Origin: Eledone cirrhosa
Lineage: Eukaryota
Reading direction: 5' to 3'
DNA length: 64,000 nt
Assembly: GCA_964016885.1 (NCBI GenBank)
Contig: OZ024743.1
Location: 118,482,001-118,546,000 of the forward strand
Shown here: positions 781-64,000 of the stretch, piece after piece
How positions within the stretch are numbered: position 1 is the stretch's first letter
Layout of the letters: every line of letters starts with the position of its first letter
The notes under the pieces: generated by a model
The model's database searches: none
Told to the model about the DNA's origin: nothing
What the model saw: only the letters and a program-made list of their open reading frames with translations
Translations under genes and position numbers: made by a program

Positions 781-1129
781 GAGTTTACATACTTGGGTGG
801 TCCCATCCAAACACTTTCTCTCTCTCTCTCTCTCTCTCTCTCTCTCTATATATATATATATATATATATATATATATATATATATATATATATATATATA
901 TATATATATATAATTAAGTTAAAGTGTACATCTACATATGTATACGGAAGTATTAGTATGCATATAAATACACACATGTATACATATGTACATGTACTCA
1001 GCTTTTCACTAGACACTTTACAGTGAGTGTCAGCTAGTCTGTATGTAACCACACAGGCGGACCGGGTTTTAGAGTCATACGAGTTTTCAAGGAAACACAT
1101 TTCCTCTATTCTCCAGCGGGCCAGACAGG

Positions 1130-1174
1130 AATATTGGACTAGTTTCGATGTTATTACATCTCATCAGCAATATT
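1130..1174 (-). ncRNA. Type I hammerhead ribozyme, family A (second copy 1599-1643)
   Basis: AATATTG-CTGATGA-GATGT aata ACATC-GAAA-CTAG-TC-CAATATT: complete core, 7-bp stem I, 5-bp stem II, palindromic ACTAGT stem III, GUC cleavage triplet. Confidence 0.9.
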
Positions 1175-2081
1175 TACCCATCTTCCGGCTTCTCTGGAGA
1201 ATTGTAAAAGCACATATCGTTATATGCTTTTTCTATGAAAATTAGTAGTGGGTAGACTAATTTGCATAGAACGTGAGTCATTGTACGCACCGGTTCAGCG
1301 GAAACGATAAAAACAAATAACGAAACGAAATTAAATTTCGTTTCGCTTCTAACTCACTTTTGTATGACTGACGCTTAAACAATTAAGTTAAAGTGTACAT
1401 CTACATATGTATACGGAAGTATTAGTATGCATATAAATACACACATGTATACATATGTACATGTACTCAGCTTTTCACTAGACACTTTACAGTGAGTGTC
1501 AGCTAGTCTGTATGTAACCACACAGGCGGACCGGGTTTTAGAGTCATACGAGTTTTCAAGGAAACACATTTCCTCTATTCTCCAGAGGGCCAGACAGGAA
1601 TATTGGACTAGTTTCGATGTTATTACATCTCATCAGCAATATTTACCCATCTTCCGGCTTCTCTGGAGAATTGTAAAAGCACATATCGTTATATGCTTTT
1701 TCTATGAAAATTAGTAGTGGGTAGACTAATTTGCATAGAACATGAGTCATTGTACGCACCGGTTCAGCGGAAACGATAAAAACAAATAACGAAACGAAAT
1801 TAAATTTCGTTTCGCTTCTAACTCACTTTTGTATGACTGACGCTTAAACAATTAACTTAATTGTTTAACTTAATTGTTTAAGCGTCAGTCATACAGAAGT
1901 GAGTTAGAAGCGAAACGAAATTTAATTTCGTTTCGTTATTTGTTTTTATCGTTTCCGCTGAACCGGTGCGTACAATGACTCACGTTCTATGCAAATTAGT
2001 CTACCCACTACTAATTTTCATAGAAAAAGCATATAACGATATGTGCTTTTACAATTCTCCAGAGAAGCCGGAAGATGGGTA

Positions 2082-2126
2082 AATATTGCTGATGAGATGT
2101 AATAACATCGAAACTAGTCCAATATT
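2082..2126 (+). ncRNA. Type I hammerhead ribozyme, family A, inverted arm
   Basis: Same motif as 1130-1174, read directly on the plus strand. Confidence 0.9.
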
Positions 2127-59500: not shown

Positions 59501-62446
59501 TGTTTGTCAACAAATCGAACAGCCTGAATTTATGCCATACAGTGTTAAGGCAACCACGTCACCTTTTTGTTCAACACTGACACAGGAACGATGTACTAGT
59601 TTCAAGCTTGTTAGCTATCATCAGCACCGTTTACCCATCTGCCAGATAGTTGAACGTTCGAAAGTATATACTTTCCTTATGAAAATTAACGGCTGAGCAG
59701 CCTAATTTGCATATTGAGTGAGTTAAATCGGTCAGGCATACCGAGAACGTAAAGTTGAAAAAAATGAAAACGAAATTTCATTTCTCACTCTTAGTATGGC
59801 ACTTACTTAAATGTAAGTATGTATGTATACGTACATACATATATGCATACAGACGTACAGTAGCATGCATATATATATATATATATACATATACATATAT
59901 ACATATATATATATATATATATATATATATACACATACACATACATACACATACACATATGCATACAGGTACACATACATATATGCACGCATCAGTTTAG
60001 CCGACGTTTATTATAACGCGTGCTTTGTTCGTTTGTTTGTCAACAAATCGAACAGCCTGAATTTATGCCATACAGTGTTAAGGCAACCACGTCACCTTTT
60101 TGTTCAACACTGACACAGGAACGATGTACTAGTTTCAAGCTTGTTAGCTATCATCAGCACCGTTTACCCATCTGCCAGATAGTTGAACGTTCGAAAGTAT
60201 ATACTTTCCTTATGAAAATTAACGGCTGAGCAGCCTAATTTGCATATTGAGTGAGTTAAATCGGTCAGACATACCGAGAACGATAAGTTGAAAAAAATGA
60301 AAACGAAATTTCATTTCTCACTCTTAGTATGGCACTTACTTAAATGTAAGTATGTATGTATACGTACATACATATATGCATACAGACGTACAGTAGCATG
60401 CATATATATATATATATATATACATATACATATATACATATATATATATATATATATATATATATACACATACACATACATACACATACACATATGCATA
60501 CAGGTACACATACATATATGCACGCATCAGTTTAGCCGACGTTTATTATAACGCGTGCTTTGTTCGTTTGTTTGTCAACAAATCGAACAGCCTGAATTTA
60601 TGCCATACAGTGTTAAGGCAACCACGTCACCTTTTTGTTCAACACTGACACAGGAACGATGTACTAGTTTCAAGCTTGTTAGCTATCATCAGCACCGTTT
60701 ACCCATCTGCCAGATAGTTGAACGTTCGAAAGTATATACTTTCCTTATGAAAATTAACGGCTGAGCAGCCTAATTTGCATATTGAGTGAGTTAAATCGGT
60801 CAGGCATACCGAGAACGATAAGTTGAAAAAAATGAAAACGAAATTTCATTTCTCACTCTTAGTATGGCACTTACTTAAATGTAAGTATGTATGTATACGT
60901 ACATACATATATGCATACAGACGTACAGTAGCATGCATATATATATATATATATACATATACATATATACATATATATATATATATATATATATATATAC
61001 ACATACACATACATACACATACACATATGCATACAGGTACACATACATATATGCACGCATCAGTTTAGCCGACGTTTATTATAACGCGTGCTTTGTTCGT
61101 TTGTTTGTCAACAAATCGAACAGCCTGAATTTATGCCATACAGTGTTAAGGCAACCACGTCACCTTTTTGTTCAACACTGACACAGGAACGATGTACTAG
61201 TTTCAAGCTTGTTAGCTATCATCAGCACCGTTTACCCATCTGCCAGATAGTTGAACGTTCGAAAGTATATACTTTCCTTATGAAAATTAACGGCTGAGCA
61301 GCCTAATTTGCATATTGAGTGAGTTAAATCGGTCAGGCATACCGAGAACGATAAGTTGAAAAAAATGAAAACGAAATTTCATTTCTCACTCTTAGTATGG
61401 CACTTACTTAAATGTAAGTATGTATGTATACGTACATACATATATGCATACAGACGTACAGTAGCATGCATATATATATATATATATACATATACATATA
61501 TACATATATATATATATATATATATATATATACACATACACATACACATATGCATACAGGTACACATACATATATGCACGCATCAGTTTAGCCGACGTTT
61601 ATTATAACGCGTGCTTTGTTCGTTTGTTTGTCAACAAATCGAACAGCCTGAATTTATGCCATACAGTGTTAAGGCAACCACGTCACCTTTTTGTTCAACA
61701 CTGACACAGGAACGATGTACTAGTTTCAAGCTTGTTAGCTATCATCAGCACCGTTTACCCATCTGCCAGATAGTTGAACGTTCGAAAGTATATACTTTCC
61801 TTATGAAAATTAACGGCTGAGCAGCCTAATTTGCATATTGAGTGAGTTAAATCGGTCAGGCATACCGAGAACGATAAGTTGAAAAAAATGAAAACGAAAT
61901 TTCATTTCTCACTCTTAGTATGGCACTTACTTAAATGTAAGTATGTATGTATACGTACATACATATATGCATACAGACGTACAGTAGCATGCATATATAT
62001 ATATATATATACATATACATATATACATATATATATATATATATATATATATATATATATATATACACATACACATACATACACATACACATATGCATAC
62101 AGGTACACATACATATATGCACGCATCAGTTTAGCCGACGTTTATTATAACGCGTGCTTTGTTCGTTTGTTTGTCAACAAATCGAACAGCCTGAATTTAT
62201 GCCATACAGTGTTAAGGCAACCACGTCACCTTTTTGTTCAACACTGACACAGGAACGATGTACTAGTTTCAAGCTTGTTAGCTATCATCAGCACCGTTTA
62301 CCCATCTGCCACATTTTTTTCAACTTATCGTTCTCGGTATGCCTGACCGATTTAACTCACTCAATATGCAAATTAGGCTGCTCAGCCGTTAATTTTCATA
62401 AGGAAAGTATATACTTTCGAACGTTCAACTATCTGGCAGATGGGTA

Positions 62447-62491
62447 AACGGTGCTGATGATAGCTAACAAGCTTGAAACTAGTACATCGTT
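62447..62491 (+). ncRNA. Type I hammerhead ribozyme, subfamily B2, inverted arm
   Basis: Same motif as 56383-56427 on the plus strand. Confidence 0.88.
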
Positions 62492-64000
62492 CCTGTGTCA
62501 GTGTTGAACAAAAAGGTGACGTGGTTGCCTTAACACTGTATGGCATAAATTCAGGCTGTTCGATTTGTTGACAAACAAACGAACAAAGCACGCGTTATAA
62601 TAAACGTCGGCTAAACTGATGCGTGCATATATGTATGTGTACCTGTATGCATATGTGTATGTGTATGTATGTGTATGTGTATATATATATATATATATAT
62701 ATATATATGTATATATGTATATGTATATATATATATATATATGCATGCTACTGTACGTCTGTATGCATATATGTATGTACGTATACATACATACTTACAT
62801 TTAAGTAAGTGCCATACTAAGAGTGAGAAATGAAATTTCGTTTTCATTTTTTTCAACTTATATATATATGTATATATATATGTATATATATATGTATATA
62901 TATATATATATATATATATGTATATGTATATATATATATATATGTATATGTATATATATATGTATATGTATATATATATATATATATGTATGTATATATA
63001 TATATATATATGTATATATATATATATATATATATATATATGTATATGTATATATATATATTATATTTGGGGAGGGTCATATTTGCGTAATATTGCCAGA
63101 ATTAATAACAGAACACACTCAAAACTAATTCATCGCCGCTATATATATATATATATATGTATATGTATATATATATGTATATCTATATATATATATATAT
63201 ATATATATATATATATATATATATATATATATATATATATATTACATGTCTTTCCGAATATTGTGTATTTTATATGAGTGTGTATATATATATGCGTGGT
63301 GTGATGTACATGTTGCGTGTGATGTACTAATATTCATTTGTTTACAAACAGAAATATATGTATATGGGAAACAGAGATTGCTGGTTGTCAGTTTCCAAGG
63401 ATGAGAACTCTGACATGCTGGAAATGACAGTACTATTTATTAACAAGACATAAACACAATTAGTTAAACATTCTTTCTAAACATGTGCATTATGTATACG
63501 TATGTATAACTGCGTGTGCATACATACATATTTGTATGAAAAACTGTTTCGTATGCATTGGTATAATTACAAGAGAGCTCCAGCCTCGTTCTGATCGAGC
63601 AGACCTGTAATGGCATGAATTCAAGTTGTTGCCTATTCATCGTTTTCTAAGAAATGATTTTAATGTGTGTGAGAGATTGGGCTACTATTTCGAGCATGTT
63701 ACTCTACTGTGAAGAGGCTCCTTCATTTGATTAATGCGTCCACTTGAATATTTTGCCCATTTGGTTACGAATGTACACTGACTTCGATAGCAATCACACA
63801 TATATATATATATATATATATATATATATATATATATATATATATAAGCGTATATATATATATATATATATATATATATATATATATATATATGTATATA
63901 TACATATATATATATATATATGTATATATATATATATATGTATTTATATATATATATATATGTATATATACATATATATATATATATATGTATATATATA

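Follow-up and report, generated by a model that had tools for sequence, protein, structure and literature searches.

Two-armed insertions of non-coding, hammerhead-bearing tandem repeats in (TA)n tracts of the Eledone cirrhosa genome and their likeness to Penelope-like elements

The window analysed here is a 64,000-bp stretch of the Eledone cirrhosa genome (assembly GCA_964016885.1, contig OZ024743.1, positions 118,482,001 to 118,546,000 of the forward strand). It holds eight insertions of short repeats, all present where an earlier reading of the sequence (the first-pass annotation) had placed them. Full units, measured from ribozyme cut site to cut site, were 409-543 bp long (14 units; 410-540 bp had been estimated), with a GC content of 33-39%. 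As in non-LTR (long terminal repeat) retrozymes, the units are a few hundred bp in size, stand in tandem and carry one type I hammerhead ribozyme (HHR) each. The repeats are real, abundant and recently active. The first-pass annotation had described plain tandem arrays; in fact the loci are for the most part inverted insertions with two arms, which seven of the eight possess (Table 1). We infer from their anatomy that the repeats are non-autonomous non-LTR retrozymes, copied in trans by the reverse transcriptase (RT)/GIY-YIG protein of a Penelope-like element (PLE).

The units were already thought to be non-coding, and their longest ATG-started frames indeed spanned only 20-86 amino acids, even when the units were read as circles. 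These frames differed among the subfamilies, none was common to them, and the open reading frame (ORF) for RT plus GIY-YIG that marks an autonomous PLE was absent from the units; coding potential was rejected. The proposed split into two distantly related families needs correction: families 1 and 2 (with subfamilies 1A, 1B, 2a and 2c and a further variant) are collinear throughout and align end to end.

With the pattern TGCTGAYGA-N14-GAAACTAGT and at most 2 mismatches, 28 type I HHR motifs were found in the window and none in 100 shuffled versions of it; a loose scan likewise agreed with the earlier estimate of about 28. Twenty-five were exact, two had one mismatch and one (35837) had two, including a core change. 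They lie in seven of the eight loci, while the locus at 24182, listed before as HHR-bearing, is a two-armed fragment with none. The 3.0-Gb genome contained 37,607 exact matches, and the reversed control gave 0.

The motifs have the CUGANGA, GAAA and UH core of type I HHRs, with stems I and II paired, and the three stem I variants described earlier were seen with their pairing retained. In a gap-free alignment of 6 representative HHRs (five from the window and one from a more distant family at L157), 88.6% of the cells paired and 11 of 19 pairs had changed on both sides, counts which are inflated by relatedness among the aligned HHRs. None of 500 shuffles matched these values and slid controls paired in only 33-46%. 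The first-pass annotation had asked whether the core mutates as freely as its flanks; among 83 aligned, non-independent family 2 segments core changes were rarer (5 of 640 positions versus 411 of 16,156 elsewhere, p = 0.0025). In the Rfam comparison it had proposed, the HHRs aligned best to Hammerhead_HH9 (RF02275), with the UA bulge of stem I and the A-rich loop II in register, at 38.6, 31.8 and 18.5 bits against a gathering cut-off of 52, and among the matches listed (150 of 372) no HHR reached that cut-off. Rfam matches to miRNAs were set aside as hairpin and microsatellite noise.

A stable stem III was not found in the monomer: its loop would have 2 nt at most, and closing 1 bp is predicted to cost 5-6 kcal/mol. 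The ACUAGU sequence that takes its place is self-complementary, and the modelled palindrome duplex (-4.8 kcal/mol) would be compatible with a dimer. Circular monomers were predicted to fold far below shuffled sequences (z = -11.5, -10.8, -3.7 and -13.1 for 4 units, 30 shuffles each). Two further HHR-like sequences were noticed. The minus strand of window 700-745 has a core (CTGATGA...GAAAC) that precedes AATAAA but lacks an obvious stem I, and is possibly the end of another PLE. The only metagenome match (L236:601-632, minus strand) does not belong to these families: it is a single HHR, likewise with an ACUAGU palindrome, that lies upstream of a possible ORF.

Thirty-eight family 1A loci were compared, namely the window copy and 37 of the best genome matches. 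Twenty-six were two-armed, always with a minus arm followed by a plus arm, the 5' ends of the sense strand meeting in the centre and the 3' ends pointing outward. The outer ends mapped to positions 222-231 of the unit (site A) or to 295-299 (site B), and the stretch between the two sites, here called the tail, measured 74 nt in 1A and 60-63 nt in family 2. Twenty-four of the two-armed loci had one A and one B end, two had one odd end (L056, L064), and neither A/A nor B/B was observed; under an independent 50:50 choice this has p = 6e-8 (tally of 25 of the 26, minus L064). All 12 one-armed loci ended at A or B. In family 2, 21 insertions in 20 loci comprised 12 A/B, eight one-armed and one running past the examined stretch. 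Among the first 100 genome matches all seven close opposite-strand pairs were minus-then-plus, and one plus-then-minus pair lay 1.8 kb apart; six of the seven were retrieved, five being A/B and one having its left end beyond the stretch. In the window itself 9004, 51341 and 56074 are A/B, 24182 is B/B, a single end is odd at 35398 and at 40475, and 32083 consists of one arm. Pooled, 44 of the 45 insertions with two canonical ends are heterotypic (24 of 1A, 12 of family 2, 5 from the genome matches and 3 from the window). The two-armed loci L114 and L234 extend past the examined stretch.

Families 1 and 2 have homologous A and B sites. Site A lies just 5' of TTTAAG, inside a short predicted hairpin in family 2, and site B follows TTAT beyond an AT-rich hairpin. 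The colonisation of (TA)n microsatellites noted earlier was evident at 24 of 25 two-armed 1A loci, which are flanked by TA repeats; L050 lies in unique AT-rich DNA. There a target duplication of 11 bp is clear (13 with the ambiguous AT), longer than the 4 bp that retrozyme duplications exceed. L045, L049 and L051 are compatible with such a duplication, which is masked by (TA)n elsewhere among the 25.

Table 1. Retrozyme insertions and a neighbouring PLE remnant in the 64-kb window (A and B, outer end sites)
Feature	Position	Strand	Details
Family 1A, left arm	912..1855	-	2.0 units of 469 bp; site A 3' end on (TA)n; HHR cores 1167, 1636
Family 1A, right arm	1864..2414	+	1.2 units; site B 3' end on (TA)n; HHR core 2089, predicted cut after C2119
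Representative type I HHR	2073..2134	+	Stem I with UA bulge, CUGAUGA, 5-bp stem II with AAYA loop, GAAA; palindromic ACUAGU replacing stem III; predicted cut after GUC
Tail between putative priming sites A and B	2345..2414	+	TTTAAG motif, then AT-rich hairpin, ending TTAT
Hydra-type PLE remnant, 5'-truncated, frameshifted	2820..6025	-	RT thumb, CxCX5C linker, GIY-YIG
Family 1B, two-armed	9004..10337		Minus arm 9004-9513 (B), templated junction piece, plus arm 9608-10337 (A); HHRs 9334(-), 9619(+), 10085(+)
Family 2, two-armed fragment	24183..24617		Without HHR; both ends near site B
Family 2a, single arm	32082..32814	-	B end; HHRs 32389, 32798
Family 2 variant, two-armed	35392..35909		Left end near B, right arm truncated; HHR 35714(-), damaged copy ~35839(+)
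Family 2a, two-armed	40473..41745		Left end B, right end within TA-rich hairpin; HHRs 40835(-), 41280(-), 41569(+)
Family 2a, two-armed	51339..52360		Short minus arm (B), rearranged junction, plus arm from ~51572 (A); HHRs 51707, 52122
Family 2c	56074..62858		Minus arm 56074-62312, 12 HHRs (A); plus arm 62313-62858, 1 HHR (B); units of 523-543 bp

Since palindromes and (TA)n tracts are generally hard to assemble, the inverted arms might be artefacts of fold-back reads. We give this hardly any credence: the arms differ in their outer ends, which use two fixed sites, and in their flanks, the duplication at L050 is clean in unique sequence, and the pattern recurs in 44 loci across many contigs.

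The inner ends behaved quite differently from the outer ones. Their positions fitted a uniform distribution (50 ends, Kolmogorov-Smirnov p = 0.39), without a pile-up at the HHR cut site (1 of 50 within 10 nt, 2.1 expected), and 43 of the 50 arms run through that site. The central junctions (n = 25) had an overlap of 1-8 nt in 15 cases, were blunt in 3 and carried inserts of 2-39 nt in 7, several of them element-derived. This microhomology, and the variants common to both arms, would also be expected if a single cDNA had folded back and primed itself, the second arm being a copy of the first. In that case, however, the copy would be no longer than the arm it was made from and would not reach from A to B, and yet the A arm was the longer one in 14 of 24 insertions (the B arm in the other 10). 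Expansion of the arrays at a later stage might obscure this at some loci but is unlikely to explain all of them, and we regard self-priming as quite improbable. A negative correlation of the two arm lengths (rho -0.53) was dismissed as a selection effect, the loci having been picked for holding a full unit.

The outer ends and the target recall those of PLEs. PLE insertions comprise partial tandems and an inverted 5'-truncated copy, often with a tail at one end only, and Hydra-clade PLEs target (TA)n and carry HHRs (Craig et al. 2021, PMC8557442). For the anole PLE (Poseidon PAc) both target strands are cut and extended, reverse transcription begins at two internal sites, one on either side of the tail, the target is AT-rich and the protein is predicted to be dimeric (Frangieh et al. 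2024, PMC11167929). Similarly, the heterotypic ends of the retrozymes put the tail on one end, in an AT-rich, mostly (TA)n target. The Eledone genome itself contains intact PLEs, with open frames of 714, 719 and 758 amino acids in three Hydra-type families, assigned by their RWK and CxCX5C motifs, and of 775 amino acids in a family which we take to be Neptune-type from its motifs. Every intact family carries an HHR of its own, and its copies end on (TA)n at either of two sites separated by 42-80 nt; both ends were visible in two of the copies, L142 and L143, and each of these is A/B. Because of the tail and inverted-arm signature, the (TA)n targeting and the matching behaviour of the intact PLEs, mobilisation by a PLE is supported, and the non-autonomous, HHR-bearing, probably PLE-mobilised nature suggested by the first-pass annotation thereby gains support from insertion anatomy. 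Most probably a PLE RT/endonuclease used both cut strands as primers, one at A and the other at B, and the resulting pair of cDNAs was joined centrally.

The units might instead have been moved by other machinery, such as RTE or another LINE (long interspersed nuclear element), or be a DNA-level palindromic satellite or MITE (miniature inverted-repeat transposable element) with a relic ribozyme. Two 1A loci (L057, L063) are fused to LINE 3' ends which we presume to be RTE-like, remnants of RTE and other LINEs occur in the window, and the PLE partner was not found. But neither a fixed 3' tail of the RNA nor a constant pair of inverted termini is present; the ends are internal and asymmetric (A versus B) with a random inner junction, matching the local and the published PLEs. 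We therefore consider such machinery improbable, though slightly less so than self-priming. At L063 the LINE piece fused to the 1A arm points outward like a second arm.

As for the template, the arms cross the HHR cut site without pile-up, and it would therefore be a circle or an uncut multimer. The monomer or circle named in the first-pass annotation can thus be narrowed: PLE-driven insertion is supported, and a cleaved linear monomer is unlikely, since the arms continue past the place of cleavage. Five loci are young in this respect (L230, L233, L234, L235 and window 56074): in each the same variant is present on both arms, with a within-locus difference of 0-0.5% as against 1.7-4.3% to the best other arm sampled; four 2c loci were sampled in this comparison, and two further loci gave no usable one. 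Variants were also fixed in every unit of a locus, as predicted for a monomer circle: 348A>G in 3 of 3 covered positions of L066, on both arms, and 345A>G in 2 of 2 of L059.

The same priming at two sites by a PLE could, however, use an uncleaved read-through multimer from a master array as template, so that neither the HHR nor a circle would be needed. Unprocessed RNA was the dominant substrate of the anole PLE in vitro (PMC11167929), and 8 of 9 Xenopus retrozyme dimers failed to cleave in vitro (bioRxiv 10.64898/2026.07.22.740005). All 38 family 1A loci are within a few changes of one sequence, so that 1A must be very young, an arm of 31 units exists, and variants occur blockwise within arrays. 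On the other hand, variants fixed in each unit and locus-specific homogeneous arrays fit a monomer circle, the HHR core is conserved and its stems covary, and circles are documented for other animal retrozymes (PMC7229834). We lean moderately towards the circle and hold the multimer to be a serious but rather unlikely alternative.

Runs or repeated blocks of variants (L036, L040, L048, L034, L067 and the 12-unit arm in the window) indicate later DNA-level duplication or multimeric templates. In view of the block duplications at L067, L036 and window 56074, array length was rejected as a proof of rolling-circle reverse transcription. The family 1 insertion at G000:C1:5738327-5752443 is about 14 kb long; one of its arms holds 31 units, the opposite arm a single HHR. 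In L041 a 2c-1B-1A chimera occupies one sense arm, which suggests that one RT used all three RNAs and switched template among the families.

Several points weigh against insertion by a PLE protein on a ribozyme-made circle. Most loci were best BLAST matches, hence young and at least 1 unit long. Locus 24182 is the sole exception to A/B pairing, and one end is non-canonical in four two-armed loci (L056, L064, window 35398 and window 40475). The copies in which core conservation was measured were picked by a query containing the HHR. The partner arm was the closest one in only 7 of the 18 loci compared, older loci being uninformative, and gene conversion between arms could mimic the same-template result. 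Insertion by the anole PLE in vitro did not need HHR cleavage (PMC11167929). Finally, no partner PLE was found, and the units had no HHR or pLTR (pseudo-LTR) homology to the PLE families sampled. These were the family of the Hydra remnant in the window, the three intact Hydra-type families, 30 GIY-YIG loci and a young Neptune family, a small sample next to the 10,597-87,663 candidate PLE matches per search. BLAST of the units against them returned only low-complexity stretches or other retrozyme insertions, and the tails of units and PLEs were not significantly alike (lowest p = 0.034 among 12 tests), so that a resemblance between the 2a and P1 tails was discarded. The Hydra-type remnant next to the 1A locus has its own degenerate HHR near 2915, and no sequence link between it and the repeats was detected.

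The model that we propose for PLE-driven insertion is built on sequence comparison. The arrays would be transcribed and the HHR, probably acting as a dimer through the ACUAGU palindrome, would cut out unit-length RNA, which would then be ligated into a highly self-paired circle. The PLE protein may bind the 60-74 nt tail and make cuts in the two strands of (TA)n that are offset by about 11-13 nt. One target 3' end would prime internally at A and the other at B, and each cDNA would be extended over a random distance, often past the HHR site and beyond the length of a unit. Joining of the cDNA ends via short microhomology or templated inserts would yield arms meeting 5'-to-5', and some arrays would enlarge later through DNA-level duplication. 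A bolder version, put forward only tentatively and on balance rather doubtful, is that a PLE protein dimer copies one ribozyme-made RNA circle from both cut ends at once, with one subunit always starting at A and its partner at B, and that several further retrozyme lineages exploit different PLEs. If this is true, one rule would explain the pLTRs, tandems, inversions and one-sided tail of PLEs, and the 37,600 copies would be the first genomic record linking animal retrozyme circles to a two-ended PLE reaction.

Further insertions of similar build were observed. Window 18480-18972 is another two-armed (TA)n insertion, with unequal outer ends, a different type I HHR candidate at +18812 and relatives at L170 and L219; it is probably another retrozyme family, overlooked in the first-pass annotation. 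The palindrome between (TA)n tracts at window 19027-19400 looks by eye like the 3' end of a Neptune-type element in L170, and probably represents a PLE insertion that is short and two-armed. L157 (G000:C3:255118900-255126500) and L044 hold a two-armed family of 312-bp tandems whose HHR is built in the same way (AAYA loop, ACGCGU palindrome). Its stem II is like that of the intact Hydra-type PLE family of L148-L152, which may be a traceable partner. Other HHR-bearing short insertions adjoin (TA)n at L153, which is two-armed, L161 and L196; this suggests many retrozyme lineages in the genome.

The remaining repeats of the window include a dispersed one of about 200 bp, SINE-like (short interspersed nuclear element) by appearance, at 28893-29293, 34300-34514 and 37858-38067, once palindromic and also seen in other loci. 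Another dispersed repeat, at 8677-8978, 39403-39608 and 41740-42296, abuts (TA)n at a fixed end, and its TA tract hosts locus 9004. Two decayed LINE remnants with RVT_1 matches lie at 11128-15881 (+) and ~47870-50572 (-), the latter presumably RTE-like.

Non-LTR retrozymes are a known class, and a tail at one end has been described before for PLEs. In the literature searched, outside which lie Dfam, Repbase, most subscription journals and the supplements, no description was found of these families, of two-armed retrozyme insertions or of A/B-paired retrozyme ends. A giant squid genome paper gives 235 Hammerhead_1 hits but does not analyse them. According to a 2020 review (PMC7761336), animal retrozyme repeats have no conserved motif identifying a partner. 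A recent preprint (Li, Clavereau & Pollet 2026, bioRxiv 10.64898/2026.07.22.740005) argues for the retrozyme-PLE link from co-occurrence and pLTR phylogeny and proposes retrozymes to be non-autonomous PLE derivatives; it covers 35 genomes, none of them molluscan. The machinery moving animal retrozymes has thus been inferred so far, while here the PLE signature is borne by the insertion ends themselves, which define the tail, as the probable cis element, to within a few nucleotides. The origin of the tandem and inverted PLE structures, called still undefined by Craig et al., is touched by the near-strict A/B pairing. As a single genome offers both young copies that are almost identical and PLEs with intact ORFs, these two questions are directly testable in vitro.

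The repeats share with metazoan retrozymes the tandem non-coding units, one type I HHR in each, a GC content below 50%, strong predicted self-pairing, a target duplication of more than 4 bp and PLEs in the same genome. Their units of 409-543 bp compare with 150-450 bp in Cervera & de la Peña 2020 (PMC7229834) and fall inside the range of 51-972 bp given by the 2026 preprint. HHR_Amex1 of the axolotl, which acts as a dimer, has a similar palindromic and almost missing stem III, and the U·U on which stem II of the family 2 HHRs stands is like that of HHR_Amex2 (PMC7229834). No description of two-armed inverted A/B insertions was found in the text searched, and 'inverted' and 'microsatellite' have 0 occurrences in PMC7229834. 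In Xenopus 24 of 57 families match Repbase, nearly all of the matches being PLEs (2026 preprint), whereas no pLTR homology to the PLE families sampled was seen here.

With the endonuclease-bearing PLEs (Hydra and Neptune, PMC8557442; PAc, PMC11167929) the insertions have in common the (TA)n targeting, the partial tandems, the inverted 5'-truncated copy, the tail on one end, the HHR upstream of the tail and the two internal start sites. The tail of 60-74 nt compares with 30-40 bp in the published PLEs and 42-80 nt in the local ones. Non-autonomous PLEs with tandem insertions are known in Chlamydomonas, and the Chlamys ones (MRC1) have a 3' end like that of their autonomous partner, most of them without an HHR (PMC8557442); in the repeats described here, by contrast, no partner homology was found among the PLE families sampled and the HHR is conserved. 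Unlike in the endonuclease-bearing PLEs, the units have no ORF and, being short, make multi-unit arms routine. In L1 twin priming two target-primed cDNAs are joined by microhomology and give an inversion, one primer lying at the poly(A) end and the other at a variable internal site. Two cDNAs are likewise joined in the retrozyme insertions, but both sites are internal and fixed.

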